Shown here: positions 14,377 through 56,744 of the stretch, piece by piece
How the letters are laid out: each line of letters opens with the position of its first letter
Numbering within the stretch: position 1 is the stretch's first letter
From: Marsupella aquatica
Lineage: Eukaryota > Plantae > Marchantiophyta
NCBI GenBank assembly: GCA_973895155.1
Contig: OZ316896.1
Coordinates: forward strand, 22,525,722-22,589,721
Length of the DNA stretch: 64,000 nt
Reading direction: 5' to 3'
Notes under the pieces: generated by a model
What the model saw: the letters and a program-made list of their open reading frames with translations, nothing else
Told to the model about the DNA's origin: nothing
Database searches by the model: none
Program-made: the position numbers and the translations under genes

Positions 14377-15689
14377 TTCTTTTCAATTGTCACAATTGAA
14401 AGGCCTGCGGAATGGAAGAAAGAAACAAACACGAATAGAGTGAACATTTGAGAACTAATAAAAAAACCTCCAAACTAACTAAATGAAAGCAACAACCTAC
14501 AATTAATAGCCCAAAAAAAAGTGAATGATTGCTCTTTGGTGAAATGCAAATGAGTTTTCGAAGGGGGACATATGATGAGTGAGATGATGTTTGAATACAT
14601 CATCGTACAAACTAATATGTACAGGGTTTTTGATATTGTCAAGTATATTGCCATGCCATTTATAAAAGTCATTCACTACAAGTAGTGCACTCAACTACAA
14701 GGAATACAGTTGAGTACATGTAGTCACGCAACATTACTTTTCATTATACTTTGGTTACGGCAAACCATGAAATGGCTCTGATTCCCTGCATAGTGTCGAC
14801 TTCTGGGAAAGAGTGACCCTGAATTGTTTCTCGATTACACTGAATAGTATATTGTAATAAGAAATCCATAGAACTCGAGTCTGTGTTAACGTCTCCTGGA
14901 TTAGTGACAAAAAAAGGTGTATACCTTGGAAGTGGCGGGCGTTCAAGGTGACTAGACAACTCGCATGCTAGATAGTGTAGAAACGTTGCAGACAATTAGC
15001 TGACTTTGCTGCAACTACTGAGATTGTCCTCCCACAGCTTCTCTGGCCAGAGACGTAATTTTCTATGCGTACTAACAATTGATCCAGCAACCGACGTTCT
15101 TTCTATGCCAAAGAGGAATCAATCCAGCAGCCCACACGATCGATTTGTCAGACGGGACTTGCAGAGTGAAGCCAATGTACGTAGTCAGCCTTCAATCGAG
15201 AGCAATTCTTCACGGAATCGATCCTTCACCATTTTTTCACAAAATTGATCATTCAAAGAAAACTCCAGCTTCAGTGAGGGAACGCGCATGTTTTCTTTGT
15301 ATTACATTCGGCTAAGTTGTCGTCTAGCAAGCAGCGCTTTGAAGGATGAAGTGTTGAGCAGCGCAGTTTACAGGGTGAAGTGTTGAGCGGCGCAGCCTCC
15401 ATTCCCTGCAAACTTCCCTGTATACAGTCTACGCATAAAGACACAGCAGGGACACGGGTTTGATCGTGCATAGAACAGGTAGGAGAGGGTAGGATAGAGT
15501 TGGTATAGCAGATCACACTTTTCCCTGAAGTCGCGCAAGAGGTAAGGGCCGCACTGTGAAGGACTCTCCACATGCGAGTTGGCCCTTAGTCACAATAGGC
15601 GAACTTAAAAGCAACAAATATATTTTAGTTTTTTAACTTATTCCCAAGAGATAGGGAAATTAATCCGTGTACCCCATGTTCATCCAAAG

Positions 15690-26371: not shown

Positions 26372-27961
26372 AGGGGGTCCGAGGCCTAAGAACGTCGTAG
26401 GTGATGGGGAGACATTTATATAGTGAGACCTGCGAGTCCGGTTTCCAAAGCCTCTTATAGTCTATGTCATCACTAGGGCATTTCTTCCTAGGAAGACCAC
26501 CACGTTGAGGGGGAGTGGTGGATCTTGCCACCTAGCGCCCTCACCAATCCCGACACCCACGCCTAAGTGCCCCTGGTGCCCGAACGCTTCCACAGAATCT
26601 CTCGAGCAAGCAACCTAGTGCCCCTTGCACCACCAGCGGCCCCTCCCATACGAAGCCGCACTTGCTCTCAAACACGACCGCTACTCAACGGTCTTCATAG
26701 TGTGCACAAGAAACCAAACGCCTTGGTAAGTAACCCTTTAGGATCTAGAACTTCCAAGTCTAGCATCCTAACTCAAGCTCAACAAACATTGGTAAATAGG
26801 TCAGTGATAGGTCCTCCCGATGCCATAAACCGAAACCAGAACCAACGCCCATTGTTTGTCCAGAACAACTCCTTCCTTGGGCACGGCCCGGGTTCCCCTT
26901 TGTATCTATCCATCACCAACTGACCGCCCTGACCCTAGGACATGCTCATGGCCTAAATAGCGTAGCTTGTCCTAAACTTGTCCCAACACGTTGGGATTAG
27001 AATGGCCCCGACTCTAGCAACCAACTCCCAGTTCTCACCCCACTGATGGTCTAGGGGCCAAGCACCCTTGGAATTCAACCTCCATGCCTACTTGGCCTTG
27101 CCTCCCCAATGCAAGCTCCCTTGGGAGACTGAATATGGCTTGGCTGCTATTTCGGTAGGATTTGGCAAGCGGGCGAGATAACACCCGCAAACCTCAAGAA
27201 CCTACGGTGCCCCAGACCCAGCTGAGCTTAGGAGGCTATAGCCCTCCTCGAGAGCTTTCCAACGCCCCCAAGAAGTCCTCCAACAGACTTCCCGTTGGGA
27301 AGATATCGCTGTTTCCATTTGACGTTTTCTCTTAGTGTCGCGACCGCCCTGACTCACGACTTCGGCTCGCCCTTAGCCCTCAGGGAGACACCACTCCCCT
27401 CATATATGCTTTTGGAGACCTGCCACCCCCGGACCAACTTTGGTCCCTAAACGTTTGGACCCCAACCCGGACCCTATCCTGCATAAATGGGCGCCCCACC
27501 AACTGGCAACGCCCATAACTTTCTTGTTAGGCGTTCGCAAGTAGAGTGCCTTAGCCCGTTGTGACCGGGCTGACCCAATGCTCATGCCTAGGCCCTTAGA
27601 TCTCATCGCCGCTTGGGGCCCTCAATCGGCCAAACCTGGATCGGGCCATAACTCGCGCCCCAAGCGTCCGTTGCCCATGGCGTCAACACCATTGGTCTTG
27701 GGCCCAAGAAGAGCTCTCACTCAAGCGACCTTGAGTCCAGTCATTTTCCCCTTGACCCGACCAGCTCTCAGCTAGCCTAAGTCCTTAGTGTGTGTCACCA
27801 GCTTGGCGCCTTGCCTTCGCCAGTGCCACGTTTCATTGCCCACAAGTCTCCCCATGCTAAGTCTTCCCCAGATGGCCTATCCGGGCCGGGACCATAAGGG
27901 AGCTTGGCGTCGGAGTCAACGATGCTGGAGCTAAGTGTTAAGGTAGTCGAGTTCCGCGACT
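26372..27961 (-). mobile_element. Partial solo LTR of the chromovirus family at 58634-64000
   Basis: 26513-27961 aligns colinearly with 58634-60118; no internal domains adjacent. Left boundary approximate. Confidence 0.85.
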
Positions 27962-29580: not shown

Positions 29581-29897
29581 AGTTACCCGTAGCCTCTTAT
29601 AGTGGCAGGTGTGGTTTAATGTGAATCTAATGGTTTAGTTAGGCAGTCGTGATTTCAGGTATTCTTCGTTTTTGCTAGTGTCCAAACCTTCCTGATTTCC
29701 GTGACATCTTTAATCATATTTTTCACACCTAAATACTGATTACACCTAAAGACAAGATTCATGGTTTCATGCAACATTTTTTGTATCAATAGTCACCACA
29801 AATAATGTGAGCTGATTTACACAATTTGTATTATTGGTAACAATAATTGAATCACTATTAGTAAGACTACTTCAAGATGGATTCAAATCTCTGTGAC

Positions 29898-32800
29898 CTA
29901 CACAATTAGTGTACTTCTGTGAGCTACGCAATTAGTGTTACTAACACTAACTCCAGTAAGCAGTTTGGTTCTAAATTCCAGAACACAATCAAAATCCACT
30001 GGCATGTCTACCCTGTGGGAGACCACAACCATATCATCAACTATTCGAGCGCAAGGTTTGTTGTAAGAAATTACAAGCTGATATCGAACGTTCAATTCTA
30101 AAAGCATATCGGGCTCAAGATCTTCATGTATATTTCCCTCAAAAACCACTGGATCATCAGTGTCTGCAAAGTGAAGACCAAGGGCATCACGACAACTCCT
30201 CTGTAAATCATAGAGAATACGATTTTGAACATGACACTGTAACTCTAAAGTTGTACTGAATCCCCGTTCAGTACCTTTGGGATAATTTGGCGAGACTTCC
30301 ATCCACACAAGGTCATCCCGCCTTCCTGGTTGACCATTTTCGGAAAGCAACTCACAAGTTTCAAGCACTCGAAGACATTCGCGCCAATTGTCTGACTTTC
30401 GAACGAACAGGTTTATTGGTTCGGCAGAATCCTCTGTGCCTTCGCTATGTTTGATACAGGCATCCACATTAACGCGCACACATCTCAAAACCGCTGTATT
30501 GGTTTGTGGATGCGCGTCTCCTCCCATGCTTACGGCTCCTTCGATCTTTGAAAACTTAATACATACTGTCTGGTGGCCATGATCACTTTTGTGGCAACAG
30601 CTGAAAGTGGTATTTACACTTACAGTTAGAGAGACCTTGCTCGATTCACTTGGGGAAGAAAACTGGTCAACTGTTGGCATTGATATTCTTTTGTCAGCTC
30701 CGGTTCGCATACATAGTCCTTCACGTTTCTTTGGCATGGTGATGTAGGAGTCCCCAACTGCTCGCCTTGTTGAAAACGAAGATGTAGATGGCTCGGGTGT
30801 CCCAGGGGGTGAACAAGAAACCGTTAAATGTTGCGGACGCCATGGACACTTCACATCTCGTTTCTGGCCTGCAACACCCGAATTCGCATCTTCACGTTAT
30901 TGCTACCAATTCTTACCTTCAAGTCTCTATAACCACTAACAGTCAATGGCCAAGTTCTCCGGTCCAAGTAACATGTCAATCTCTTGTTTATCCTCAGATG
31001 AGAACAGGGTTCGGAACTTCCCGATACTAAATGAGGTCTCCAAGCACACTGAACAGTTGTAACAATCCCAAGGTTGGTTGACTTTGGTGGAACTTACAAA
31101 CGATCATATCCACACGACCTTACAGCATAATAGTGACGTTCAACTTGAGAAATTCTGAGCAGTTGGAAGGTACGTATTGTACGTCTAATTTAGAGTACAT
31201 TGACATCTTATTCGCACGGGATTATTCTCAAACCGAACATAGATAGGCTCACTTACTTTCTTGAATCGTACTTATCACAGCAGAAGTTTCATTGTCATCC
31301 ATTTTGGAGCCATGCAGGTTATTTGCAGAGGAACTCCCGCTTCTTTGAAATGTCGTTGAGCTTTCCGCACCACCGACAATACCCTTCTTCTGAGATGAGC
31401 TCAAGCTTTCACTCCGATTGGTTGGATTGCTATGAACATGACCTCGTAGCCTCTCATAGTAAGTTTTTGTGCTTGTCTGGCGTATTTGTGAGTACCCAGC
31501 TTTTGAAAGGACAGACCGTAGATCCTCCATTTCGTCATCAGATAGAGTAGAAATCCACTGGTTGCTTACAGAATAGTTGCCCGTGCTAGTATGCTTCACT
31601 GCTGTCTTGACGGATTCTAACACATCATTAGAATCGGCATTGCGAGGCGCCTTTCTCTTGTAAGGGAGGCTCTTTGGGACATCCACGCAGGTAGGCTTCT
31701 CAGGTTGCTCCGGAGCTGACTGTATTTCATCTTCAAAAGAGAAAGTACCCAATTGAGGATCAACAAAATCACCTGGACAAGCATTCAAACTACGAAAGTC
31801 AGATACTATCAAAATAATCATTCAAAACAAAGTTGCTCAAGAAAGAGAGAAATACGCCGTTGAATTGAATGGTGGCATCCTCATGTCTCTATTCGATCCT
31901 GGAATAGAGGTTCTTCAAACTAGAGAGCTCCAATTCCTGGGTACAATAATTCTTGGATGGAACGAGGAAACCTTGAGCTCAATCCGACCAAAAAGTCTAA
32001 AACATAGGAATGAAATTCACTTCATTTTTTGCAGGATGTCTGTCTCATCGATTTCCTTTCAAAAATGTCATTATGATCGACGCATTCAACATCATCCAAC
32101 TGCGTGCTCGCCAAGATTGGAAGTAAAATAAGACTTACTTGTTCGGACCATTTGGCTTGCCAAGTGGAATTGTTTTTCAGCAGTATCTGCGTACTGTTCA
32201 ATCTTGCCCACGCAGCCACTGTCGTTAGATACTACCGCCTTATTCACATCTTCACGGCGAAAATCATTATTTTCAGTTGCGCATGATGGATCATTGCATA
32301 TAGTTAAAACATGCACGCCGTCATCGATTCTCTCGTAAACCATTGTGGTATCAGTGTGATAAATTTCTGTATACCCAGTTCTCCGAAGCACTGACATTAA
32401 TGCGGCCTTTTCATGCTTGTCAAGACCGAGCATCCATTCCTTGCTCACAAAGTAACCATCTCGACCGCCATTCTTGACTTCTGTTTGAAATTCTTCGAGC
32501 TCCGATCGCTCCTACAAAAGGAACGCAATATCGCCGTCAATCCAAATTCCTTACCACTAATAAGAGCAATCTACGCAACTAGTTTCCGATAATTTCACAA
32601 TGCTCAAACACAATTTGATGTCTACAACCAGAATCTGAAAGCGTGAGAACCAACTCCATAAACAGATAAAAACAAACTCCGACTGAATCCTTATTCTTTG
32701 TGATCACGTTTTTAGCGCATTCTTGTTGGCTTTTGCAGCGTCAAGAGTTATCAAAAAAGAGTATATGATAGCGTTTTCCATTTGCGAGCCCAATCTTTGC

Positions 32801-35800
32801 AGTACCGAGTCACACAGGAACGGACAGAAAGACACATGAAGCCCGAATCCCTCCGTCGATGGTACATGCCACGCTCCTGGTCTCCTCATCTCCGTGCTTC
32901 TGTCTCCACGAGAACAGAAGTTCTTTCCCAAACTATCGGGTACATTCTTCAATGCGCTGCAGTCCTCAAGTATCACTGTTCTCAGGGATGACATGCGCCC
33001 TAAACTGTCCGGAAGGGTCATTAAATTTCCACAATGTTCAATCCGAAGGACTTCGAGAGACCCAAGGTTACCAAGTTCTTCCGGAAAACTGCGCAGCATT
33101 TCCGCCCGAACAGTCAGCTTCTCCAGCGCCCGAAGCTGCCCTATGCTGACCGGGAACCGTTGCAACCTATCCGCCCATATATACAAATCTTCCAGTGAAC
33201 AGAGGTTCCCCAAACTGTCCGGTAGCTCCTGAAGGTGGTCGACATGTTTTATGATTAAGATCTTCAGAGACGAGAGCTGGCCAAAACTATCTGGCAATCG
33301 TTGTAATTGTACGCAGTCAACCAACTCCAGTTCTTGCAGGGCATGGAGAAGACCAAAACTGTCGGGCAGTCCTTTAAGGTTTGGACAGTGCTCCAGACTT
33401 AGCAGTGTGAGAGAAACTAAGTTCCCAAAGTCGTCGGGTAGCGCCTCTAGCTCGTTGATGTCTTCCATGGTAAATTCTTTCAGAGCCCTGAGTTGACCAA
33501 AATTGGCAGGAAATCCCTGTAATTTTCCACAGCTTTGTAACTTTAATTCTTGCAAGGCCGAGAGATTCCCGAAACTTGCCGGCAATCTTTCAAGCCTGTT
33601 ACAGTCGTGGAGATGCAAATGTGTAAGGGTACGCAAATTCCCAAAGCTTTCAGGTAGGACCACCAGGCGCTCAGCATGTTTTATGATCAGTCTCTCCAGA
33701 GACTTGAATTCGCCAATACTTTCCGGCAGCATCATTAGTCGCGTACACCCAATCAGCTCAAGCTCTTGCAAGGACGAAAGAAACTCAAAACTTGCAGGCA
33801 GCCTGTCTAGACTGTCACACGCTTCTAGAGATAGAGATCTAAGGGACGATAAGCTCTCATGCAAGTAGAATTGTCTCCTTTCCGTAGTCTGTTGACTGCT
33901 AAGGCTCCCGCAACCTATGATGCGCAGATCCGTCAGCGAAGAGAGGCTCCCAAACGATTCGGGCAGACTTGCAAGCATGGAACAATTGAGAATGACTAAT
34001 GTTGCCAGGGAAGAGAGACTCCCAAACGATTCGGGCAGACTTGCAAGCATGGAACAATTGAGAATGACTAATGTTGCCAGGGAAGAGAGACTCCCAAAAG
34101 ATTCGGGCAGCTCCACAAGTTCTGACATCCCGGATAAGAGCAAAACTTTGAGGGCCGAAAGGTTGCCGAATGAATGCGGCAGTGCAGTGAACCTGACCTC
34201 AGTCAACTCCAACCGTTTCAGTTGGTACAGATTACCAAAATTGTCAGGCAGACGGGAAGGCCCCCGTATATCATAGAGAGATAAAATGCGCAGGTTGCTG
34301 AGCTTCCCCAACGCTTCAAGACTTTCCTCCGGCATCTCCCAGCCTTCGAGCTGTAAGACAGCTAAGTTATTCATGTCCTCCAGACTGATAGGGAGGAGGG
34401 GCCACTGCTGGTAAATCGGAGGAGTGCATCTTAGTAAGCAAAGCTTCCTTGATAAGGTTTCGCTGGAGCCTTCGGGTAAAATATGAACCAGCTCCAAGTA
34501 CTTCAGTCGTTCCAACTTATCCAGCAGTCCTAACTGGAACCTTTGGATTGGACCGCGGAGTTGCAGAATACTTGTCTGCGACAAAGTACGTCTCAAATAA
34601 GACTTCTTTTACCGAAAAGGTTCAATACTTGAGCAGTGATTAAACTATTGGAGTCTTCATTGAAAACAGATATTCTGACCTGAAATTTAATCCCTTTGGA
34701 AAACATTATTTATTCATTTTTTACCGCTTCAAGAAAACTCTACAGACTCTTGGCAGTGCTATTCTTCAATTGCATACTGATTTTAAAGTTGCTTCAGAAA
34801 CTTACCGCATTTGCATTGAGAAGATCCACTGCTCTGTCCTCATGTCCAATACACATTGATATGATGGCCCCCTTGGAGATACGACGGCCCAAATCACGCA
34901 GCTGGTCGTGGACCCACACTTCCTTGTACTTGATGTCCTTCTGCCAGGTCTCATCCCATTCAGTTTTGTCGACTTCCTTCACCAAAAATGTCCTGAGCAA
35001 CTTGGCCCACCTCATTTGTGAATATCCATAAGAAGTGCTCCAAGCAGCAAGGGCTATCTCTACCGGCTGCCCAAAAAAATGAGTCCCTGCTTCGATGAAC
35101 ATTCCTTTCTCTTCCGGCGACAGAGCATCATAGCTCACCCTCAATGAACTCCACAGTCGGTCATTAGGATGTCCGTCAACAGATTGAGCTTTTCCGAGAT
35201 TCTCTAATGTCTCCTTCCAGAGCCTAGCATTAGTCTCGTGACCCCTAAGATAGCACCCCACTACTTCGAGCGTCAATGGTAAGCCGGCGCATTTGTCAAC
35301 CACTTTCTTGACGTCTTCTTCCAAATGACGATTCACCTCGATAAGTTCGGCCGGAATTCCTTCTTGCTGAAATGCGTGGTGGCAGAAGAGCTTCATCGCC
35401 TCTTCAGACTGGAGAAAATCAACTTCGTAGATGGCACAATTTGGAAACATATCCAGAACGCCTTCATCACGAGTGGTAAAGATCAGTTGACTGCCACTTC
35501 CAAACTCATCCAATCTAGGCAGAATTCTGACTTGAACTTCGGAGTCAACATCATCCATCGCGATCAGAGACTTCTTCATCTGAACATCGGACCATTGCAA
35601 GGCATTGTCGTCCACCCTACTTCCATTCCGACGAAAAAGGCCGAGTACCCGCTCACTTAATTTGTGCACTTCAATGCCTTTGACATTGTCCACAAAGCAT
35701 GTATACTCAAATTGTGGAGAGATATTATTAAAAATCTGCTTGGCAATCGTGGTTTTCCCGATGCCACCCATACCCACAATTCCTAGAACAGGAATATTTG

Positions 35801-37467
35801 CGAACTTCTGTTGAACCTCGAAAACACGCCTCTCCAAAGCCGTAGGATAATGTGGGAGCCCGTACACCATTGCCTGGAAAGATCGATACAATAAGTTAAG
35901 TCACATATGATTTTGTTAAGGTAGTTAAGAAAATTGTCTGGAGTGACAGAAAGTTGTCGGACACACTTTCTTCCTCTTCCTCGCTTGGTGGTGTTAGTAG
36001 TGACCTTCTTCTGCAGGTGTCGAAGCTACCTTATAATCAATACTCCGTAGCGGTTAGCCGAGAGACTCTGAAGTCGCATACAGTACTCCTTTCTAACCGT
36101 GGGACTCTGATGGTAGTGCCTGATTGCGATAAATTCAGATGGCACATGCAAGAACTCTATCAAATTTGTATCTTATCAAATGTCTTCTACTTCGGTACTA
36201 CCAGAAGATCTCTATAAAGCCTGGAAGAATTTCCAACAGGCTTTTGAAGTATAAAATGCTAGGATTACAATTGACGTCAACTTGACGCAAAGTACAACTT
36301 TGACATAGATTTGCCAAGCGGAACACACTTTCCAGTTTGCAATAATCTGTCCAGACTGGAACGAATGAGAGCTATGCCTACAGTAGTTTACTGCTTCAGA
36401 GAAAAAAACGGTAAAGAGCTCTAAACATGAAGGTTCACTTTTTAAAATAATGGTTACCCAGGTAGTCTTGAGAAGGAACAAATTTTCATCAGCCAATGGA
36501 CATCGTTGTTTTTTCTGATGGTGATGGTAGTCGATGCAGTCATCGAACACATCTGAACAGAACGGTAAGTTGCAGTAGAAAAACACCACTCCAACAATAC
36601 AATCTATTTCAGGGATCGAGGTACTGCACCTTTCAAGTCCGTGTTATTTCCAAACTGGATTTTTCTGAATAAATGCATATGTAAAGGATTCTTTACATTA
36701 TTACTAGATTTGGCAAATATATCAGTTTTTCATATCAATTCATTCCATCAAGTTAAAGTGGAACTACATCTTACCGATTTGGTTCGAGGATCTTCTCCGA
36801 GTCCTGCAATTTGCCACATCTTGTATTGTCCATGTTGTCCGCAAAGATTGTCGAAATCAAAATTGACTCTTGCTCTTTGTGTACTAAGAGTTTTCACATA
36901 TTCCAGTAAAGGACCTTCAGCAACAAAACGTTCAGCTAAGTGGTCAAAGACTCCTTGATGCGGTGTAGAATAGAAATATATCGCCTTCAAATTTTCCAGA
37001 AATGTAGTTAGTTGAATCTTTTTCTCAGAGTTTCTCTTCCAGCGGCCTGTCTTGCTTGATGCATACCCGCATATCTGCTTTATCACTAAGCCGCCAAAAT
37101 TGTGACCAACCAATACGACAGGGCGGCAGGGTTCTTGTCCTATGTTTGCGTTCAGCAAATCTGATGTCAAGTTCTGACTAATGAGATGCATGTCAATCGT
37201 TCCACCTTCACAACTCTTAAGGACACTAGCATCGTAAGAAACAGACAGAATGCGGGCATCAGGAAACTTCTGCACCAGCCAAGTTTGTGGCCAAATGGAC
37301 GATCCGTGTCCACATTTCCACGTAGACCAATGGTTATCTTCAAAATCCCCGCGTTCCAACCCATGGAAAAATACGACTTCCACGCTTGGTTCGCCGCGTG
37401 GTCTATATAATTCGTACACAGAGTCATTCAATTGAGACACCTGATAACGCAAACCCAAGTGGTCCAT
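29898..37467 (-). CDS. Alpha/beta-hydrolase-NB-ARC-LRR (HNL) immune receptor with C-terminal extension; exons 37467-36775, 35873-34806, 34575-32806, 32511-32139, 31772-31257, 30868-29898 (~1796 aa)
   Basis: VVFFHG/WPQTWL/ILSVSYD/GHNFGG/YSTPHQG hydrolase; GMGGIGKTT, MDDVD, TTRD, GLPL, VHD NB-ARC motifs; 24-aa LPxSFGxLxxL LRRs. All five introns are GT-AG with matching phases 0,0,0,1,1. Confidence 0.88.
33947..34090. repeat. Perfect 72-bp tandem duplication adding one LRR unit
   Basis: LPESFGSLSSLATLVILNCSMLAS is encoded twice in copy 2 and once in copy 1. Confidence 0.92.
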
Positions 37468-39399
37468 TTTACTAACCTGTGCACAATTTGGTACAGAATG
37501 CCAAATCAGTTGGGGTAAGATTGAATAATTTCCAAAGATGAGACACTGAGACGAGGCAGACTGTAAATCTTGCTACCCATGTGACAAAAGAAGCACGGTT
37601 TAGGTCCGAACGGCAATTGAGAAATTCAAAACATGGAACCATTCACAAGCTCGTAAAGAGAGATCACCACCAAGGACTGTGCATAATACAAGTATTACCA
37701 TGGGCCGGTTTACAAAAACTCATAGCGATAAGGCGCAAAAGTTGCAGAAAGCTCGACGTAAATCTTGCAGCAAGCTCCGCAAGTACTTCGCGGACGTATT
37801 GGTTCGGAATAACTGCAGACATTCAGGGCATGTAATCGTGGATCGCCGGCTATTGGATGAAAACAGAATGGTCCGGGGATGCAGCAGGGTCACTTTAACT
37901 CTTATTGATGCATCGACGTGTTGTCTTGTCCTGCTTAGAAGTCGTAGACTTGGCAGAAGCCCCGAAGTTGGCGTTGACGCACATCTTTCCCAGGAAGTAC
38001 AAAATGGATACGTTTTTACCGATCACACCTGCGGAAGTTTTTTGACTGTGCCAGTAATGGTCAGCAAACCCGCAGCAAGTAAGAAGTAACCACATTCTAC
38101 CAAAGAACGTTCTCGGGACACTATTCTTCGAAGCACCAAGGCTATGTTGTTGTCATAGATACATAGCACAGAAGTGGCCCCAACTGATCCAAGAAGTATT
38201 ATCTACGATTCCAAAGAAAGCTAGCCTATGTGTAGATTTCTTCAAACCAGCCCAGAATAAGCTGGCGGATGACCAGTTTTATAAAGTGAGTAAGTTTCCC
38301 CATGATACAAAAGTGACATACACCACAGAGAGCTAGAGGATGTAACTGGCGTCCGGAACTTAAAACGACATCCTTGTCCAATATCCAAATGGGAAGAGTA
38401 CAGACTGTACCTGCACCCACGAGAGGAGCTACCGCCAGTTAGATGAACAGGTTGGATCACCTGAAGAACCAGACCCACCGGAGGTTTCGAGTAGACAATT
38501 GAACACCCAGCTAAATCAAATCCGGGACCTCACAGTGAGCAGATTCACCTCCGCTGTCGGTTCTGGTATGGGACTGCCGAGAAGTCCAGCAGGATTGCAA
38601 TTACCTGCAGAGTTCGGATGCTGGTGACTAAACGAAACCTAATAAGCTTTTGGAACTTGCTGATTCACACACATCACGCAAACAACTACGGAGTAAAGCA
38701 TCAGCCAACAGATACCTTCTTCACTGGCAGCAAATCCGAACTGCAACATAAACCATTAAACGAGCATCTACTGCAGGCTTCCCCTCCCCTCCACGCTCAC
38801 CTTGCTCAGGCAAACTTGAACAGGGGTTCAACGCGGAGGGGGTACACCCTCACTGACTCGGAAGCCCGTTCATCTATTTGAACTTCTCCAGGCCATGGCA
38901 AATCCACCGAGATCGCGGGACTCACGAAATCTGCTCAGAAGCAGATGTAAAAGCAACAAGCAAAGAGCAGGTCTCACGCACTGGTCTCACTATGCAAGTA
39001 GATCTGTCCCATCAAGACAAGAAGAAGGCCATTACGGTGGGGTAGAAATAATTAATTAATCCATCACCTGACGCCATTCTTTGAAAACGGCAGTGCCTGT
39101 CCATCAATCTGACCGTCTCAAAAAGTATAGTGTAATCTTTGGTTTGTCCAGATTGTCTTCGCTTAGTTTAATATCTTCCCATACCGACAGTTTTCTAATC
39201 TCCAGAGCCCGTTTAATATGTGAACCAGTAGATAACGTTGCCAGAGTGCATTCAAGGAGTGTTCTATATTTATTGTTTTAAAATTATGTGCCCAAAGTAA
39301 TGTATAATCATCTATGGTAGTAAGATGATGTGACAAGCCAAAGAATGGCTTGTATCGAGCCAATTATAACTAATTAGCTCAATACTCGTGCATTGCACA

Positions 39400-39850
39400 A
39401 AAGATATCATAAAGAAAAAAGATGTCGTGATGCCCAAGATGGTGTTAAGAGAAAAGACATCATTAAGAGAAAAGATGTCATGTCACCCCAAGATGTCGTG
39501 AAGAGAAAAGATGTCACTACGCCAAAGATGTTGTTAAGTATAAAGTTGTTGTTAATGGTCCATAACTAAAAGGATGTTGTTAGTCATATATGTTGTCAAG
39601 TCTCCGTTGCACAAAAGACGTTGTTGCATAAATATGTAGTTGCATTTAAGATGTTAAATAAAAGATGTTGTTAAGTAAAACATGTGGTTTCAAAGATGTC
39701 ATTGAGCAAAAGATGTAGTTTACTAAAAGATGTGTAATAGATGACATTGTGCTAAAGATGTAATTGAAAAAATATTATGGTGCAAAAGATATCTTTGTTA
39801 GGATGATCTCATTGCATAAAAACAATTGTCGAGTGAAAGTTGTCATGACA
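39400..39850. repeat. Degenerate AT-rich minisatellite (aaaagatgtc/gttgtt)
   Basis: aaagatgt motif recurs about every 20 bp. Confidence 0.6.
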
Positions 39851-40038
39851 CAAAGAGAGGCAACAACCACCACCAAAGTACAACAAAATGAAAATGATTT
39901 TTTATTGTATTTGTCATTTATATCTTTTTAAACCTTAATACCCTTGCCGCCCCCCCCCCCCCTCTTTCTTTTTCCTTCTTTTTCATTATTTTTCTTGTCC
40001 TGTCCTTTTTATTAGATTGTGCGCTATTTTATTGATTA

Positions 40039-41850
40039 CTAGCCCCATGCCCGTGCGTTGCACGAAAGACTTCAAGTGAGGCAAGATGTCGAGGTGCGGG
40101 TAAGATTTTGAGGCGGGGGAAAGATGTCGAGAAGGCAAGATGTTGAGGTGCGGATAAGATTTTCAAGCGGGGGCAAGATGTCGAGGTGAGGGCAAGATGT
40201 GAAGATTTTGAGGTGAGACTTTTTGAGGCGAAGCAAACATGGTTGTGCATTGCAAACATATAATTGAGTCAAAAAGTCAAACAGATTAATACAAAAGTGA
40301 TACAATCTTTATTCACCCATTCAATAAAGAACCTCATCATATACAACATTTTTTGTCAACCTTGCTTGACCCTACTCGGAAACCGCAAGTAAAACCTTGA
40401 TAGTTGTAGGAGATGTCGCCCTCGAAATTGCTACATACAACTGTCCATGACTAATTACAGGCTTTGAAAGCTATAACCCTACATGTTTCTAAAGTCTAAC
40501 CTTGAGCTTTGTTTATGGTCATTGCATATGTCACTCGAATGGGAAATTGGACCCTACGTAATAAAAAAGGAAGTGATTCGTCAGATGTCAACAGAATCTG
40601 TGGAATAAATGTAAGGGTTTCTGCATGTTTTCCTTCAAGAACTCGTGCCTCAATGACATGACCCATGCCCATGCCAGTGCCCGTGCGTTGCACAAAAAAA
40701 TTTCAGTGAGGGCAAGATTTTGAGGTGAGAGCAAGATTTTGAGGCGAGGGCAAAATTTCAAGGTGAGCGCAAGATGTCGAGGTGAGGCAAGATTTTGAGA
40801 TGAGGCAAGATGTTGAGGTGAGGGCAAGATTTCTAGGTGAGGGCAAGATGTTGAGGAGAGTGCAAGATGTCAAGGCGTGAGCAAGATTTTGAGATGAAGG
40901 CGAGATGTAGAGGTGAGGGCAAGATGTTAAAGTGAGAAAAAATGTCAAGGAGATAAAAATTGTTGAGGTGAGAAATATGTCAATGTGAGGAAAAGATGTT
41001 GAGAAGAGAAAAATATGTCAAGGAGAATTTTTTTTGAAGTGCGATAAAGATGTCAAGGTGAGTAAACGATGTCGAGATGAGAAAAATATGTAAAGATGAG
41101 AAAAATATGTTGAGGTCCAGAGAAAAAGGTATGGAAGAGCAAAAATATGTCAATGCAATGCAAGAAAATATAGCTTTCGCAAAATAGTTGATAAGACATG
41201 TTATGTATCATCTCAACCATATGATCATCGTGGTCGTGTTCAACAATCGTGCATTGCATAGATGGTCAAATTGCGTAAACAATGTTGAAGTGGAAAAGAA
41301 AAGATAGCATAGAATTAAGATGTCGAGGCAAGACAAAGATTTTGAGGTGAAGCAAAGATGTCAAGGCAAGGCCAAAATATTGGTGCGAGTTTAGGTGTAG
41401 AGGTGATGTAAAGATGTTGGGGTGAAGCAACAATGTCAAGGCAAGGCAAAGAAATGTAGGAAAGACAAAAAAATGTAAGCAAGGCATAAGAAGCCTGATC
41501 ATTTTGATTGTAGTAGTTGTTGTGAAAATCTTATGGTTGGGGAGCGTGAAGGTTAGGGCACATGGACCTGAGATGGGTGACAGAGGTGCTAAGAGGGAAC
41601 ATTTTGTATTGTTTGTAAAATTTTAATGCATAAAAATATTCTAATTTTCAAAATATATTCAAAGTTTTCCAAAATTTACAAAATTCAAATTATAATTTTT
41701 CATTTAATTAATTTATTTTCATTTTTGGTTTGGGGTAGCTAGGGAAGACATTTGAGGGGAATTTTTAGGGTGGATATAATGGTGCCAAATTGCAATGATT
41801 TTAAATGAGGTGTCAGGATTGGCTTCAGCTTTTTTATGATTATGTAAACA
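40039..41850 (-). mobile_element. Non-autonomous Helitron with PIF1 helicase remnant and 19-bp minisatellite
   Basis: Minus-strand 3' end cgtgcaacgcacgggcatgggg-CTAG|T (hairpin plus CTAG); helicase motifs RRVQFPIRVTYAMTINKAQG, HGQLYVAISRAT and TKNVVY at ~40330-40670. The 5' end near 41848 is only inferred. Confidence 0.8.
40700..41480. repeat. ~19-bp minisatellite gaggtgagggcaagat(gtc/ttt); second array at 40070-40230
   Basis: Tandem units read directly, degrading rightwards. Confidence 0.9.
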
Positions 41851-44539
41851 AACCAAAGAGTGCAAGATCAAGTAGTGTAGAGTTTGATAGTTACAGTTGC
41901 TGGTCTCAATTGGGAAAATTCATTTTTACTTGTTTCCACCCTTTACATAGCTAATATTTGATAGTTAGTAATGGATAGTTACCAGAAAAAACATTTGTTT
42001 TTGTTTCCAATACTTTGATATTGGTCATTTAAAATGGCTAAATGAGTGATTTCATGGTTAGGGTGAGTCAAGGGCACCGTGGCAAGGTAGATCCTCACCA
42101 GGACCAAGGCAAGTAGCAAGGCACGGTGGCGAGGTACTGGCGTGGCAGGGGCTCACTGGAGAGATAGATCCTTCCGTAGACCAAGGCAAGTACATGGTAT
42201 GAAAGGGGCACAATGGCAAGGCAGTACCTTGTCTGGACTCATTACTGACGCGACCCAACAATAAGATTTTCACAACAACTACGACAACCAAAATGATCAG
42301 GCTTCTTTTGCCTTGTTGAGGAGGGAGGAGCAAGGCAACAGAGGAGCAACCGGGCATTGTGGGCCAGTACTGCCATGGAGGAGGGAGGAAGGGTGCTCTT
42401 TGCTGATTCATTTTCTAATCAAAAGTCAAGAAAAAATGGTTGCATGATTCAACGGACACCAATCAATCCCGCCAAATCTTGTTTTGTAAACGGATGAAGG
42501 ACTAAATTAGGCGGGATCAGGTATTATAATGTTAGGTGTAATATTTGTTATTAAACTCCTTTCATGATGTAGCACTTCCTATGCATGGATGATATGGCAT
42601 GGAGCATAATATGGCACGGATGGTAGAGGGAGGAGCACTTTGTATGCATGATTAGCATGGATGGTAAAGGGAGGAGCATGGTGTAGCATGGAGGGTAAAA
42701 GGAAATAGTTGGTACTTTTCTTGCTTGGAGAAGCCTGTTCACACCAAACACATTTATTTTCTTCTTGTTCCTTTCTCTTTTTCCAGTTCCTTTTCTTTCA
42801 CTCAAAAAGTATTGTAAAATTTGAATGACGATCACTTTAAAAAAAGGCGCAACTCGTTATTATAGTTTCTAATTCTGAAATTATCTAGGGCTGCTTCTTT
42901 TGAGGTTTTTGATAATGCCTGTTGTTAGTTTTTTTTATTTAATTGTAGATGTTGATCATTAGTTGTCATTCTAAACAACATTGAGAGATGAAAATAGAGT
43001 TGAAATTTTGCATGTTGGAGCTGGGCGGCAAAGTTATTGGCTTTTGCTACAAGATCTGTACCAGTGGTCACCGATGATTCCTACACCAGAATAACCCTGG
43101 AGAGGATTTTCAAAAGGAGCTGCTAGTTACGTTACCAAACGAAGGAGTCGAGATAGTAGAAACATCAGATATCCTTTGCAGCAGAGATGGAATTAAGTGA
43201 GTAAATGTAGGATTTTAAGGTGCTGCAAAGTGAGCTGCCGACATTGAGTTTGTTCCTACGCATCTATGAGGCATTCATGTCAAAAGTTCAAATGCAGGGC
43301 TCTTTCAGAAACCATTACTATGTGTTACTTGATTTCTCTACAAATCAATATAGCATGTTCATCCTACTCCATGCCTATTTTGACTTATCTGAAAAAATTT
43401 AAATGAAACATTTTACTTTTAACACTATTTTATGAAAATAAGTATTGAAAGAATGATTATGAAAAAGTTAATGAAAAAACTGCACACATTTTTAAAAGTG
43501 AGAAAAGTACAATACAGTCGACCGTGGATAAGTGCTACGTGTATAACTGCATTCCGTGGATAATTGCAGGGTGTTGGTGTCTTCCCCAAAAAATACAGCA
43601 CATTCCTTTGTAAATGCACCCAAAAATGCACCGTTTATAAGTGCATCTTGGCTTCACTAAAAGACAAGATTCTTAACTGCATTCCGTCTACAAGAGTTCA
43701 CATGCATTTATCAATTAGTTTTCCGGTAGACAAGATGCGTTTATTTATAAGTGCTGGACAGAATTACATAGAGTACTTACAAGTACTTATCCATAATAAT
43801 GCTGCAAACAAACAGATACATACTAAGGTGCACTAAAGCATTTGGGCAGGGCCTGTACGAGGGTTTAGGGTACGAGCGAGTTATGTGTGACCTGACAGCA
43901 CAATCACGAGGTTTACACGAGAGAATGTGAAGGGGATCGAGGTTTAGGACTGACAAAGAGCAACAACTAACAGGGGAAATTGCCATTTGCTTCAATTTTT
44001 GCATCTTCTCATACATTGTCTGGTGCAAACTCGACCTGTCGAATGCCAAGCACATGCCTATATCCTTTGACACTGCAGACTGATCAAAATCGCAAACTTC
44101 CGTGCATAAGTTCGCCAATCTCGAACGCTGGCACATACCCATAAGTGCATTATATGAATATCATGCACTTATCACGTAGTGCATACCATGTATAACAGCA
44201 GGCTCGGGGTGTCTTCCCGGGAGCCTGCACTTAGACACAGTACCACATTGCATTAATTTCAAGGTATTAGAGTAGTTAATGTACTTGTATAAGTACAGCA
44301 CTTTATGATTCAAAGAGCACTTTATGATTCAAAGAGAAGAGCGTGAACTACTTAACTTCTTCTTTTTTCCTGCTCTATGTGGGGCTCTTTATTTAGGTGA
44401 CACCTGTTCATCAATAAACCATGAACAATGTAAATTCTATGACCAATGGTATATAAGGTGCACTCATTAGTGAATAGTGTACTAGTTGCTTGGTTGAAGG
44501 GTCCAACCTTCTCATGCATGTAAGGAAATATGCCCCTCA

Positions 44540-44680
44540 AAATGTTAAAAAAAATATAGGGGACCTAATAAAAACTAAGGAAATTAAAAAAGTTAAGGGG
44601 GGCTGCCAAAAGTTAAAAAATATATAGTGTACCTAATAAAAACTGAGGAACTTAAAAAAGTTAAGAGGGTTGCCAAAAAT
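44540..44680. repeat. Two-copy ~65 bp tandem repeat
   Basis: acctaataaaaact.aggaa.ttaaaaaagttaag occurs twice. Confidence 0.8.
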
Positions 44681-44899
44681 GACTAAATTCTAAATAATAC
44701 ATGGCTAAAACATGGACTAGGCCAAATTAACATAAAAATATATTTCAATCAAATAGAATGAGACAAGATAACCAAAGAGTGTTCCACCATATAGCAATAT
44801 AGCAACCTCATTCCTGTCTTATGGGAATCCTGTCAATATGGCAAGTTGTTCCTCAATAGTTGTATGTGCAGCAAACAACCCATTAATCTCTGGAAGTTG

Positions 44900-45490
44900 C
44901 CTAAACCCTCACCTTTTCCGCCGTTGGATTGAAGATTAGACAGGATTAATTCATCTGAGCCATTGGGTTTTGAATGAAGGCCAAGATGGTCGCGGCTAGG
45001 GCGCCTATGACAGCAGCCTTTCTGACATACTACTACCTCAACTGCTTAACGCGTGTTTAGGAACGGTCTGAGTTCAATAGGCCGCGCCCATGACAGCAGC
45101 TGGACCCTCACCTTTTCCGCCGTTGGATTGAAAGATTCAACTGGATGAATCCATCTGAGCCATCGGGTTTTGAATGAAGGGCCAAGATGGTCGCGGCTAG
45201 GGTGCCCATGGCAGCAGCTGGAAGGACGAACTGCGCCTTTTTGACATACTACCTCAACCATGTTTAGGGACGGTCTGAGTTCAATCGGCCGCGGCCAGGG
45301 CGCCCATGACAGCAGCCTTTCTGATATACTACTACTTACTACCTCAACCGCTTCACGCGTGTTTAGGGACGGTCTGAGATATAGCCTTTCTGATATACTA
45401 CTACTTACTACCTCAACCGCTTCACGCGTGTTTAAGGACGGTCTGAGTTCAATAGGCCGCGGCCAGGGCGCCCATTACAGCAGCTGGAGC
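44900..45490. repeat. Composite repeat array of two interleaved modules
   Basis: ccctcaccttttccgccgttggattgaa...ccaagatggtcgcggctaggg x2; tactacctcaac...gtgtttag/aggacggtctgag x4. Confidence 0.85.
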
Positions 45491-46810
45491 GAGGACCCGC
45501 GTGATTCAATCTGGACAGTCCAATTGGAGTCGACCACTGAGCACATACATGTGGTCCCTCCGTTAGTCGTTAATATATTGGGCCTCTCGTACTTCCTGCC
45601 ACCGGTCGGCATTTAGTCACTCCCAATGCTGTTTTTATAGTTTCTAAATTCTAATAGATATATATGAACGCTACTCTTCTGGGGATTGGGCTGGGCAGCT
45701 AAACCCCGTAGACCTGGGCACGCAACCTGGGCACGCAACCTGGCCTTCCCTGGCTTATTTATGCACTTTTTCGAAATTTAACTACCAATACAATTATACA
45801 AATGCTGTCTAAAATCTGATCGGCTGAAAATAGTTGATTGAATTTTGTTGGGAGTCCCATTTCACTCCCGCAATGCAAGTGCTTATAATTGTGTATTGTT
45901 CATGAGCTCGATACGGCAGTGATGATATAGCGAAGTAGTCAATGGAGTCGGATGAGAGATGGCCGGCATTCTGGAATGCCCAAGCTGCCCGCACATCTGA
46001 TCGAAAGATGGACTTGAGGTCAAAAACGCTGGAGCTATGTCAGGTCGGGAAGCTGGTGAAAGGGTATCTTCTAACAGCGAAGCGATGAGTTCTGCATTTT
46101 GACGGGGAGAGGTCCTGAGTGGAGGGCTCCTTACGTGGTCTCGACGGAAGAGCAAAGAGGCGTTTAGGAAGCCAATCATCCAACAGGTGGATTTCTGGAT
46201 GAAAGAGATAGAGCGGCATCAATCACGGTAAGAACGTATCTTTTGAGTGTACAGCGATGAAATAACTGCAAGAGGGATCCTGTAGATACAGAGGACTGTG
46301 ATTAGCGCTTTCAAGGATAGGCAACATTTGGCTTGCAAATCAGAGCTGATTGTTTGTGTGTGGCAGATTGATATCGGCTCAAGGAGTAGCAGGGCATAGG
46401 CTCAGCTTGACCACAACATGCAAATCTATCAGTCCAGGTAATACATGAGACGACTGACTCTCGATTCTCATCGTGTCTTTAACGAATGCAGTCGTAGAAT
46501 CCTGAAGAGTTCCCCCCCTCACGTGTCATGTATACATTCAAGATTTCCCAAAATCTGGTTTCCTGCACCGCGGGTCTGGCAGATCTGGTGTGCTCATGTC
46601 CCTGCGGTTTCTTCCCTTGCATGGTTGATCCTTCCTCTTCTTACAATTTTCGATATTGATGTTCAGCCTTTGACAATTTATGCAAAAAATTCTACTGGTT
46701 TCCAAAGGGACATCAAGCGCAGTCCTCCTTCCGGACGATAAGACGATCGCTGGCTACCTCAACATTCTTGTCGAGGGTGAACGGGCACAGCCGCTTCCAA
46801 ACCTCCAATC

Positions 46811-48259
46811 ATGGATCTAAAAAAGGTAAGTGATCCTCTTTGGACACATGCTTCAGATCTTATCAGTACTCACGGATGGGTTTGTTCATCTTCTTTCACA
46901 TAGCGCATTTTTTTGCGTTCAACTTCTTTAAAATCCATTTTTGCATCGAACAGAAAAAAAATGGGAAATAGTTATTTTAGTATAGATGTTCTCTGGTTCC
47001 TATTCTGCTTCACACATGTGTTTTCCTTGGTGTGCAGCTCAATGATTCGCTCTACATTTTTCACGATCCAGCTGATCAGAACAAGGAAATAACAGCCATA
47101 TTTATTTTCTTTCATTGTGTCCAGTGGACAGGAGATGAAAAAGCATATGTGCAAACCTGGATGTCAAGAGGCAGCCCTAGTATCTGTTGGCCAAAAGTCT
47201 GGCTCTCTGCTAAATATCCAGAAGCCCTAATCTTGTCTGCTAGTTATGATGCTGGACGTTATAAAGAGAAAAATAGCGGTCTCTTTCGTATGGATTCACT
47301 TGCAGAGAATTTACGGCAGGACATTCTTGAGCTTAGTACTAAAAGTTGTCCAATTTTTTTGATTGGGCACGGCTTGGGAGGAATAGTTATTAAGGCAGTA
47401 ATTCAAAACATGCAACGCAAAAGAGACGCCTTGAATATTTGTGGGTCTACACGCAAGGAGTTGATACGATTAGATTGTTTCTTGGAGAATGTGAGGGGGA
47501 CTTGTTTTTATAATACTCCTTTTCAAGGCTCAAAGTTTGTAAATTCTATTCCTAACAAGGGTCCCCTGCTATCAACTCTGGAAGTGCTAAACAACGACAC
47601 CTGCGAGTTGAACAATTATTTTAGAGACTGGCGGATTAATAAACAGTGCACAACAGCAACAATTTTTGCACTTCTTCATACAGATGTGGTAAATACTATT
47701 TACCCTGCCCAAAACTTGAGATCTCATTTATAACCAATTTCTTTCTCTAGGATGTTATTGATTGCAAAGGCATTAACGACTCTGTTCTGTGCAGTCTTTC
47801 TGGTATGGTGGGTCACCCTTGTCGTGCACACTTCTGAACTGGCTTTGGACCAAAAAACAAATTCAATTGGTGGAGGAAGGAGCAGCCCGTCATGATGCTG
47901 ATGACTTCTATACAGTAGTTAAATGTGACCATTTCACTGTTTGCAAGCCTCAATCCGAGGTGGCCAGCAGCTACAAACGGCTCATTGGACTTATTGAACG
48001 TGGAATGCAACGAGCATCATGCGACCCTGACAGAAAGCAGTGGACTAAATACGTGGAGTCAACCTTGCGCGCACTTCCTAATCTTAGGGGAGATGCACTA
48101 GAATTGAGAATAGACCATCTAGAGCAGGTTGGGAGATTTCGTGACATTTTTTACAAGCTCATAAACGGTCTCAAAGGAGCCGGTTTTAAGAAGGTAGGTA
48201 CTGATGGCAAGGCTGAGCTGTGGGAGCGAGCTAGTAGAGCACATCGCCACTGTTCATGA
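46811..48259 (+). CDS. Stand-alone SERAC1/PGAP1-like alpha/beta-hydrolase-domain protein; exons 46811-46825, 47038-47688, 47795-48259 (~376 aa)
   Basis: IFFH, WPKVWL, ILSASYDA, GHGLGG, YNTPFQGS, DHFTVCKP motifs; two phase-0 GT-AG introns; homologous to the HNL N-terminal domain. Confidence 0.88.
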
Positions 48260-50012: not shown

Positions 50013-52259
50013 TGTTGGAACTTTGCAGAAAGTTCCTACCGTTACGAGGAAGATCGTTCTACCTGCGCCAATCTGATCTTGTCGTGTAGAGCGTATTTAC
50101 CGGGCTCTCTCTCTGCTGTCGGATTTAGGGTCTCTCTCCTGGACGTTGATTCCCTTCCTTCCCGGCTGCACCTGCCGCTACTTATTGGTTCATCGTCACA
50201 GCACCTTCAGTTCATATCATGGCATGTTCACGTTTTCAACATGGTATCAGAGTGCATCTCTGCTCACTCTCAATAGATTAGGTTAGTAGCGGCGTAGTAA
50301 TCCAGGTAGAAAAGTTCCCTGGCCTCTTACTCCTGCATCTGAAGTTGCGACAGTAGTCCTGAGTGAAAGTTCCTCATAAGCACAGACTGTAGCGACAAAT
50401 CATGTCATCTAGACATGGAATGTTAAAGTGTTTTTCTGAGAGTGACAAATTAGAAGGATCCAAATATCATTTAGCGTGGACCATCCTCGTCAAGAATATG
50501 CTGAAACGTGATGAACTCTTCACTAAGCTCAACTTTGGCATCAAGCCTGATGCCAATGGTCAAGTCCAAGATGGCAGAGCTCATCTCACTGCACGTGAGA
50601 TTGAAAAGAAGAAACTACGGGCCACTTCGATTCTTGCTGCTACAGTGAAAGCAAAGTACCTGCCGACTGTTGATAAGTACTCAGATGACCCAGCCAAGTG
50701 TTGAGACCACTTCCAACAATGATTTGGTGGCGCTTGTGCAGAGACGATTAATGCTGGAACAAAAGCTTGCACACATTCGCATGTCTGACGACACCTCTGT
50801 GGAAGACTTCATCAACAATGTTAACAATATTGTTGGCCAACTAAGCAGCATTGATGTTGAAGTTGCCGACGACAAACTGATTCACCTGGTCCTTCGTGGA
50901 CTCCCCCCTAGCTAGGGTTCTTTCGTGTCTGTTTTTTCTTCTGACCTCTCTCGCACCCCTCCTCCTCAGTTTTCCACTCTTGTTGAGCGTATGTAGGCTG
51001 AAGAACTTTGGAAGAAGAACTCTCAGCGTGAACCTGTTGAAGAGGCACTATCGGTCACTCGTTTTACCAGACCAAATGGCCGTGGTCATGGAAGGTTTCA
51101 GCCTCGGCCTTCCTTCTCTGACCCTCCTCGCTATCCCTCTTACTCTCGTGTTGCAGGAGGACGTGGGATCCGCCGCAACACCACCTGCAACTACTGCGGC
51201 AAATCTGGACATTGGGAGGATGACTACGATCTCAAGAAGGTGGATGAGCAGATTGCTCAGCTACAACTTAAAGTTGTTGGCTTACGACGCTTTTGTCCTC
51301 AAGCCAACGTTGCTGAGATCTCTCATGAAGACGAAGATTTCTACGAAGAGGAAGAAGAAGGCGAAGGCGAACCCAGTAACACTGCTCTTGAAGCCAACTT
51401 CACTGAGATTCTTCCTAGTCGCGAATCTAGTAATTGGATCTTAGACTTAGGAGCTAGTGTCCATGTCTCTGGTGACAAGTCTGTCTTCTCTGGACTAAAT
51501 CCGTCTACTAGATCAGGATCGGTCGCCACTGCAAGTGGTACCTAACTTCCTGTTGCTGGACACGGTACTGTCAACATTGATACAAATAAAACCGTCCACA
51601 ATGTTCTCTATGTGCCCGGTCTTTGTCGTAATCTTATGTCCGTAGGTCATCTCACTGATGCTGGTCATAATGTTATGTTTAATTCCAAGTCCTGCCTTGT
51701 ATTCGACAAAGACAACCCTCACAAAATCTTTCTCCGCGGCACTAGGGACCCCGCAAATCATCTATATCGGTTGACCCAGTCTCTCCCGTCTATTCCACCC
51801 TCATCAACCTCCTCCCGCCTACTACCTCGGGTTCTATCTCAATCTGCACCTGTACTTAGTGCTGAATCTTCTCCCTCAGACTGTCCTGTCGATCTATGGC
51901 ACCGACTTCTGTGTCACGTGAACTTTCAAATGGTCCACCATATGTCTCATCGCGGTCTTGCTCTCGGTCTTCCATCCTTACTGAGAGTCAAATGGTCTTG
52001 TGAGACCTGTACTGTTGCCAAACATCATCGCGACAAGACACCCAAGTCGTCGGCTACTCGTGCTTCTCGCCCTCTAGAGATTATTCACTCTGACCTTTGT
52101 GGCCCTTTTCTTGTCTCCACATCTCAAAAATACATACTCACGTTTATAGATGATTTCTCTCGATTTACCTGGGTTTATTTTCTTTCTAGTAAAGCCAAAA
52201 CTTTCCGACGATTCCAGGAATTCAAGCTTCTTGTCGAGAAGCAATTTGTCACACCATTC
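50013..52259 (+). mobile_element. Truncated Ty1/Copia retrotransposon (5' LTR, PBS, gag, protease, part of integrase)
   Basis: LTR ends CAACA at 50241; CNYCGKSGH knuckle; WILDLGAS protease; LWHRLLCH...CETC; IHSDLCGP...FIDDFSRFTWVYFL; stops and frameshifts; LTR start could instead be 49990. Confidence 0.92.
50242..50253 (+). promoter_or_regulatory. Primer-binding site, tRNA-iMet type
   Basis: TGGTATCAGAG directly after the LTR end. Confidence 0.9.
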
Positions 52260-52847
52260 TAGGTAGTGTTAGAGTGTATCGTACTATCTAGATCCGTATG
52301 TTTGGTATGTGTGCTATATGAGCCGATAAGGTTCCGTCAAGTTTGTGTGAGAGGGTACTTCTCACTTGTGAGGCATTGAAAGGTCATCTTTCAATGTTGA
52401 GCCTTGGAGAGAAAGGAGCTTGAGTGTGGCTATGGTGGTTGTGAGCTCAGCTTGTGTAACGTGGATTCCTTGAGTAGTGCAAGGTGCGTTGGTTTGACAT
52501 ACATGTGTGATCAGATCGGTGCGGGATCGATGGGGTATTGTGGACCGGGATCATTGTGCCGATTGTATTGAGATTACATTGAAAGATCACATTCAAAATC
52601 TGTTGTATGGACTGTGCGGACAGAAGTTTGATTGATTGAGTTGTCGACGGTTCGTGGTAGCTCGGATCGTGTGTTGTTATCAAACAGATCGTTGGTATCT
52701 CGACCTGTATCGTTGTTGTTCGATCGCCCTGCTTCGCGATCGATGTACAAATCTGTGATTGGTGACAGGTTTTGAGTTGGAGGTCGATTGATGATTCGTG
52801 GAGGAAAGCGAATGTTGAGTAGATGTTGGATAGTGGAAGTCAATCCG

Positions 52848-55900: not shown

Positions 55901-56744
55901 CAACGAGGTTGGTGGATTTACCAGCACGCCCTGCATTTGAGAGGACTAGGTTTAAACCTAGTGTTGTGTCATTGGATAATCGGAGTGGTATGTTCCGATT
56001 AGTTGGGCCTTCTAGGGTAGTATACCAACCAGAGAGAGTGTTACTGGATACTGGTGCTCAGCCCTTGATGTTGGGTAAGTCTGCCATACGTGGATTGGGA
56101 TTGCATCCAGAGGATTTGGAGGATTGTCCCTTTTCCATTCAGACTTCATTGGGGGGATCTACACCTACACAGCACATTACCAGGAGACCTCTTGATTTGA
56201 GGATTCAGGAAGGTCATGCCACAGATAGCTCACAGATACAGGCGCAAGCTATTTTGACTAAAGCAGAGTCATATGATGTGTTGGTGGGATGTACAATGCT
56301 CTACCCCATGGGATTTATTCTTGATTTTTGGGAGGAATCAGTGTCATATAGACCTGATTGGTAGTCAGGAGATGCTCGATTGAGCAAATTTCCAATGAGA
56401 TTTAGTGGACCTGTGGGAGGCCCTAAATCCACACCATTGTCTTTGGCAGCATTCAGTGGTGTAATTGTTGGACCTGATGATTTGATTGAGGCCCGAATTG
56501 AGGGTAATGCGCATGCAGCAGATGTTCCACCATTGGAGGAGTCTCATGAGGAGCACATCATGCGAGGATTACCTGTTGGCAATGTTGTGCCACCAGTGTG
56601 GGGGCACTGCACAGGCCTTGCCACAGGCAACAGCACGATTGGTACATGATGCATGGCATCATGTTTTTACACCATAGTCAGGAGTAGAGCAGTCTCGTGC
56701 AGATGGACCTGTGACTCTTTCACCATTGGATACCACTCCTATTG

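Follow-up and report, generated by a model that had tools for sequence, protein, structure and literature searches.

An unnamed post-LRR cassette in a hydrolase-NLR gene of the liverwort Marsupella aquatica, and a possible diverged copy of its module in a neighbouring hydrolase gene

Main finding and proposed role

The window analysed here, a stretch of 64,000 nucleotides from Marsupella aquatica, is eukaryotic DNA with introns and carries a hydrolase-NB-ARC-LRR (NLR) gene that continues past its leucine-rich repeats into two ~60-aa domains and one ~320-aa domain. This post-LRR cassette appears to be new, while hydrolase-NLRs themselves are already known. The reading that we favour, at a probability of roughly 45%, is that the cassette gives the NLR a sensing or bait function, and that an inactive-looking hydrolase gene next to it possibly has one diverged copy of the ~60-aa module, acquired by domain shuffling.

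Mechanistically, the cassette would be an add-on surface that a pathogen molecule binds or modifies. Ligand binding would then release the intact NB-ARC, allowing its switch and oligomerisation, and the serine-less hydrolase domains, once clustered, would signal as scaffolds and not as enzymes. The hydrolase-only protein could come from the same pool of shuffled genes and act like a decoy or as a helper, its tail being possibly a strongly diverged module copy. Binding of module to module would not be needed for such a sensing role. We infer the role from two features taken together, the position after the LRRs, which is like that of C-JID domains, and the presence in non-NLR proteins, which is like that of integrated decoys.

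The hydrolase-NLR gene and its damaged tandem copy

The NLR gene, copy B, occupies 29898..37467 on the minus strand. A six-exon model (37467-36775, 35873-34806, 34575-32836, 32511-32139, 31772-31257 and 30868-29898) gives an open frame of 1786 aa with GT/AG splice sites and no internal stop, collinear with the Calypogeia proteins P0002 and P0003 to their C-termini, and with Pfam matches to DUF676, NB-ARC and LRR. This model, like that of the hydrolase-only gene, was built from splice signals and homology only; in four DNA runs the introns were covered and no splice joints were seen. Exon 1 (36775..37467, minus strand) encodes, at the N-terminus, an alpha/beta-hydrolase domain (DUF676, E 5e-05, above cut-off) that is 47% identical to the P0003 hydrolase. 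It is followed by the NB-ARC exon (34806..35873, minus strand; PF00931, E 6e-33), in which the P-loop (GMGGIGKT), kinase-2 and VHD motifs are all intact, and by the LRR exon (32836..34575, minus strand), placed by Pfam and the splice model with the donor at 32836 chosen among possible sites. On this model from signals and homology, copy B has an N-terminal hydrolase and then NB-ARC and LRRs in one frame, the arrangement of a Hydrolase-NLR (HNL). The named relatives closest to it are proteins of the leafy liverwort Calypogeia fissa. An Rfam search found no match in the window.

A tandem paralogue, copy A, lies at 243-8955 (minus strand) with ~93% DNA identity to the copy B region 29810-39039, and has the two modules at 2724-2912 and 1848-2036 and the C-terminal exon-6 domain at 339-1319, all on the minus strand. 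Copy A is damaged, its hydrolase exon having a frameshift and a deletion, its P-loop being altered (GMVGIRKT) and its NB-ARC having lost ~380 bp. Between copies A and B the module codons look neutral-like, with pN about equal to pS, although the counts are small and one of the copies is damaged. The first 175 nucleotides of the window (1-175) are the end of another exon-6 domain copy, which suggests that the tandem array has a third member beyond the left edge of the window, and run contigs at 90-99% identity suggest further paralogues. Elsewhere in the window, a Myb/SANT ORF (plus strand) faces a DDE_Tnp_4 transposase ORF (minus strand) at 11683-14382, a pair that we take to be a PIF/Harbinger-like element. 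LTR-retrotransposon-like gene pieces were noted by eye at 51546-52262 (plus), 55504-56364 (plus) and 60556-62271 (minus), and a 1.45-kb repeat, 83% identical, is found at 26514-27961 and 58634-60117.

The ~60-aa module and its family

Module copy 1 is encoded by exon 4 (32320..32508) and module copy 2 by exon 5 (31441..31629), both on the minus strand and each ~60 aa long. The original prediction had singled out three short strings as one recurring motif, and all three are where it placed them: LMSVL...VYER at 32329-32400 (minus strand), LRSVL...YYER at 31450-31521 (minus strand) and, at the end of the hydrolase-only protein, LINGL...LWER at 48158-48229 (plus strand). Two further string copies are present in copy A, at 2733-2804 and 1857-1928, and a six-frame search of the window with the predicted pattern matched these five places only. 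The preceding VS..W...L...E was found in both NLR copies, as had been said of them, and is missing from the hydrolase tail. The duplication within the NLR is genuine and exceeds the first description: the two copies align gaplessly along 63 columns and are 37% identical, which is far beyond chance.

That the NLR tail holds an undescribed module of ~60 aa is borne out by a family of 18 proteins and a confident structural model, with no match in Pfam or among PDB sequences. A profile made from the four window copies, searched against 1.84 billion representatives, gave 20 matches at E up to 0.001, of which P0008 and P0020 were removed as repeat or composition matches. The 18 proteins kept comprise 13 from Calypogeia fissa, four JGI/IMG records and one Logan record; together with one more cluster member they yielded 27 module copies. 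Mean identity among the module members is 35%, with a minimum of 16%. The hallmarks of the family are [FY]x[VLI]xxxW, seen in 25 of 31 members, and a T-x-T stretch, seen in 23. The predicted pattern fits only five of the 31, which makes it a post hoc one. In the tree, the second-position copies form one group (support 98/93), separate from the first-position copies, so the duplication predates this NLR gene.

The usual layout is a pair of modules followed by the ~320-aa domain, and the proteins in which modules or the whole cassette occur are diverse. The hosts include an NB-ARC-LRR protein (P0002), hydrolase-LRR proteins (P0003 and P0014), an AIG1/MMR_HSR1-type GTPase (P0004) and a DEK_C protein (P0018), the last two also from Calypogeia fissa, as well as four proteins with no other recognised domain (P0005, P0007, P0010 and P0012). 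The module is thus found in non-NLR proteins (P0004, P0018, P0005 and P0007), which is the distribution that marks an integrated decoy. None of the 18 family proteins combines a hydrolase and the module without LRRs. The cassette was found only in leafy-liverwort records or in records without a species name. A word-based protein search with module 1 returned no matches, scans of metagenome contigs found no locus, Pfam has no family at cut-off for the module or for exon 6, and no sequence search of the PDB gave a match below E 0.18. Among the papers searched we found no description of the module or cassette and no paper pairing Calypogeia with NLRs, and the supplement of PMC11218826 may list such domains.

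In the AlphaFold model (63 residues, pLDDT 88.9), the module is predicted to be a small alpha/beta fold in the order helix-strand-helix-helix-strand-strand. Its best structural neighbours, the R3H, SepF, Alba, IF3-C and winged-helix folds, resemble it in being small alpha/beta folds, but the Z values are typical of common arrangements and identity to the top rows is 2-9%. For example, SepF heads a wide structure search of 48,161 chains (Z 4.8, rmsd 2.5, 60 aligned), and the R3H domain of Smubp-2 (Z 5.4, rmsd 2.8, 58 aligned) has Z 4.1 and rank 15 in that search. Foldseek with the module model found nothing below E 0.1, the winged-helix matches all being at E 0.1 or worse. In R3H domains, the second long helix carries an R-x3-H motif. 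Membership in that family was considered and rejected: in the hhalign register, His stands at the motif position in 0 of 31 members, the R position holds Arg or Lys in 18 of 31, and the profile comparison with 51 bacterial R3H-like sequences, gathered by means of that motif, gave P 0.15.

The ~320-aa domain encoded by exon 6

Exon 6 (29898..30868, minus strand, copy B) encodes the unnamed C-terminal domain of ~320 aa and falls outside the region covered by the original prediction (31430..48259). The domain is conserved in ten relatives at 25-39% identity, travels with the module in most relatives, is likely to be beta-rich and is possibly the more important sensing domain of the cassette. It matches no Pfam family at E up to 10, C-JID included, and no PDB sequence below E 0.5. 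For an exon-6 relative, the only ESM Atlas leads were to GH38 C-terminal beta domains and, at 0.85, stayed under the threshold of reliability. A weak 'third module' signal within exon 6 had no counterpart at the same place in relatives and was taken as noise.

The hydrolase-only gene and catalysis

The hydrolase-only gene (46811..48259, plus strand; exons 46811-46825, 47038-47688 and 47795-48259; 376 aa) stands head-to-head with copy B at a distance of 9.3 kb. Between the two, degenerate tandem arrays of 17-19 bp with a strong G skew occupy 39400-41400. A word-based search with exon 2 of this gene found only P0001, and with exon 3 nothing. In P0001, which is 74% identical to the hydrolase-only protein, the tail is missing.

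In the alpha/beta-hydrolase fold, the nucleophile position holds the catalytic serine. This position is Ser in P0003 and P0014, Asn in copy B (GHNFGG) and Gly in the hydrolase-only protein (GHGLGG), the same Gly being found in P0001. The hydrolase-only protein has the His267 motif and a complete fold. In the copy B model, the ~70 aa that end the fold and bear the His are missing, and intron 1 (35874-36774) occupies the place where relatives encode them. A degenerate extra exon in that intron was considered and rejected, as it did not rise above shuffles (172-456 of 500 as good) and no remnant of the hydrolase end was found there. With Ser replaced in both proteins and the His-bearing end missing from the NLR, both hydrolase domains are likely to be pseudo-enzymes, judging from their residues.

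Other DNA runs show at least 30 exonic differences in the hydrolase-only gene (from 40 of 68 rows). These fall in 28 codons, 23 of them non-synonymous and five synonymous, with no stop. Tail residues 304-362 have at least 12 non-synonymous and at least two synonymous codon differences, none to a stop. The differences may be alleles or paralogues. Being mostly non-synonymous and free of stops, they indicate a frame that is kept open and a tail sequence that is little constrained.

Is the hydrolase tail a copy of the module?

The tail in question (residues 308-367, 60 aa; 48050..48229, plus strand) occupies the 60 residues from the hydrolase fold to the last nine residues and aligns weakly with the whole module. 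The original prediction took the module to be shared between the NLR and this tail, and a profile of the NLR repeats was expected to retrieve it. It does not: with HMMER the tail scored -1.2 bits against the four-sequence profile (a score reached by 1766 of 5000 shuffles) and -0.1 bits against the 31-sequence profile (644 of 5000). What survives of the shared module comes from more sensitive profile tests, which were borderline positive.

One of these is hhalign with 31 sequences, in which the tail keeps the register of its best pairwise match (to the P0005 copy) through all 63 columns and needs one 2-residue insertion (local P 0.0016 at a probability of 16%; global P 0.013). Its score exceeded those of all 158 real decoy windows and all 150 shuffles, in local and global modes alike, and the hydrophobic core positions of the tail fit the module with that single insertion. 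Softer profiles placed the tail at the top of 1243 ORFs, whichever of the six settings was used. Its upstream half alone, which the original prediction had not selected, did less well, being reached in fixed register by 27-42 of 400 shuffles. Whole-module profiles were more variable, since 5-466 of 3000 shuffles reached the score of the tail depending on the pseudocounts.

These results have to be weighed against the strongest rival, namely that the module of the NLR is real and the tail is unrelated, having been picked post hoc through a common helix-G-aromatic-hairpin pattern. We regard this as a serious possibility, somewhat doubtful in view of the hhalign score above all 308 controls, the 0-4 of 400 two-gene shuffles that reach the profile scores and the matching core positions. 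In its favour stand the missing HMMER score and the divergence of the tail, which lacks W27, S24, F9, the T-x-T-T stretch and the aromatic-x-V-S-x-x-W hallmark of the family. Its identity to members averages 16%, as low as that of the least similar pair of members, its branch length in the tree is 3.7, and it scores 3.4 with a whole-module profile that gives left-out members 62.9-117.9. The best pairwise match is to the P0005 copy and spans 60 columns, interrupted once by a 2-residue gap; it is equalled by 6% of shuffles when all 31 members are considered. Window-wide controls also speak for this rival. For the 24-column part, 2-10 of 60 shuffled windows reached the score of the tail; at full length with a free insertion site, 7 of 40 equalled it, compared with 0 of 60 when the insertion site was taken from the tail itself. 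For comparison, the tail scores 9.6 and an unrelated piece of exon 6 reaches 8.3. After window-wide correction, P for the tail match is ~0.03-0.18. Protein searches found no orthologous tails, the ESM Atlas gave no usable match for the tail, and the single-sequence model of exon 3, which encodes it, has pLDDT 38.6. By these scores, homology of the tail to the module stands at about even odds.

A different origin for the tail is also conceivable. The hydrolase-only gene might be an old truncated hydrolase-NLR, in which case the tail would be an eroded start of the NB-ARC (ALELR...INGLKGAG against ALERR...IVGMGGIG). The tail does sit where the NB-ARC begins in hydrolase-NLRs, with its GxxGxG in P-loop register, and an end-to-end alignment with P0003 sets LINGLKGAG on TLGLVGMG. 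When the target was the opening 60 aa of the NB-ARC in the window, 63 of 5000 shuffles reached the score, and with a four-sequence profile 37-174 of 3000 did. However, the match was not repeated with P0002 (1333 of 5000) or P0003 (2977 of 5000), 3-21 of 245 real decoys scored as high, there is no Pfam match, and this comparison was itself picked by eye and is therefore also post hoc. The scores against the NB-ARC start are weaker than those against the module, and we consider this origin unlikely.

It is quite improbable that leafy liverworts own a two-component switch, in which a tandem-module NLR would recruit a free pseudo-hydrolase through a matching module as a globular counterpart of the fungal amyloid link. 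If the tail were homologous and did bind the modules, it would provide a testable model for in-trans signalling by hydrolase-NLRs. Very unlikely, too, is a module that serves as a homotypic docking domain by which the activated NLR would recruit the neighbouring hydrolase, as in fungal NLRs, since, for all that the genes are close head-to-head neighbours possibly sharing the module, that only the neighbour has a complete hydrolase fold and that the logic has a precedent in the accessible parts of PMC4986451 and bioRxiv 2022.03.16.484565, the homology has no better than about even odds, the module follows the LRRs and is not at the signalling N-terminus, it is predicted to be globular and not amyloid, the neighbour is without the catalytic serine, and the mostly non-synonymous tail variants are a poor fit to a fixed interface.

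Comparison with known systems

Bryophyte hydrolase-NLRs (HNL or Hyd-NLR) have already been described, in the available part of PMC3352924, and the accessible text of PMC11218826 reports that hydrolase domains from Marchantia cause cell death if expressed on their own. Copy B has the hydrolase, NB-ARC and LRR order given for these receptors in the available portions of both papers, and its closest named relatives are likewise from a liverwort. It differs from the receptors as described there in that its LRRs are followed by a tail of ~620 aa with two kinds of unnamed domain, and in its replaced Ser and missing His end. Shared among NLRs, an AIG1-type GTPase and stand-alone proteins, the mobile, unnamed post-LRR cassette makes a concrete candidate for the part of bryophyte hydrolase-NLRs that does the sensing, and Pfam-based domain scans miss it.

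The sensing or bait role that we favour for the cassette is the one proposed for it by likeness to the C-JID and other post-LRR domains of TIR-NLRs such as RPP1, ROQ1 and Prunus Ma, which are accessory, sometimes repeated and also placed after the LRRs. According to the accessible part of PMC8813719, the C-JID domains of flowering-plant TIR-NLRs serve in effector binding or in regulation of the receptor. The C-JID of flowering-plant TNLs, however, is a beta-sandwich of ~150 aa, marked by four signature motifs after the LRR, whereas the module is a predicted alpha/beta domain of 60 aa and the exon-6 domain has ~320 aa. The cassette likewise resembles NLR integrated decoys, in which a domain that also occurs in non-NLR hosts is fused to an NLR, but here a whole cassette and not one known domain is common to the hosts, and its relation to effectors is putative.

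The fungal two-component amyloid systems (NWD2/HET-S, the sigma and PP motifs, SesB-like hydrolases) offer a further parallel. As set out in the available parts of PMC4986451 and bioRxiv 2022.03.16.484565, a shared motif lets fungal NLRs activate effectors that are encoded by separate genes. As in the window, an NLR lies beside a free effector-type gene, which can encode a DUF676-like hydrolase, and the C-terminus of the effector-type protein may share a motif with the NLR, although in the present pair this homology is only borderline. The fungal motif is at the N-terminus of the NLR and forms a beta-solenoid amyloid, whereas the liverwort module lies after the LRRs and is predicted to be globular.
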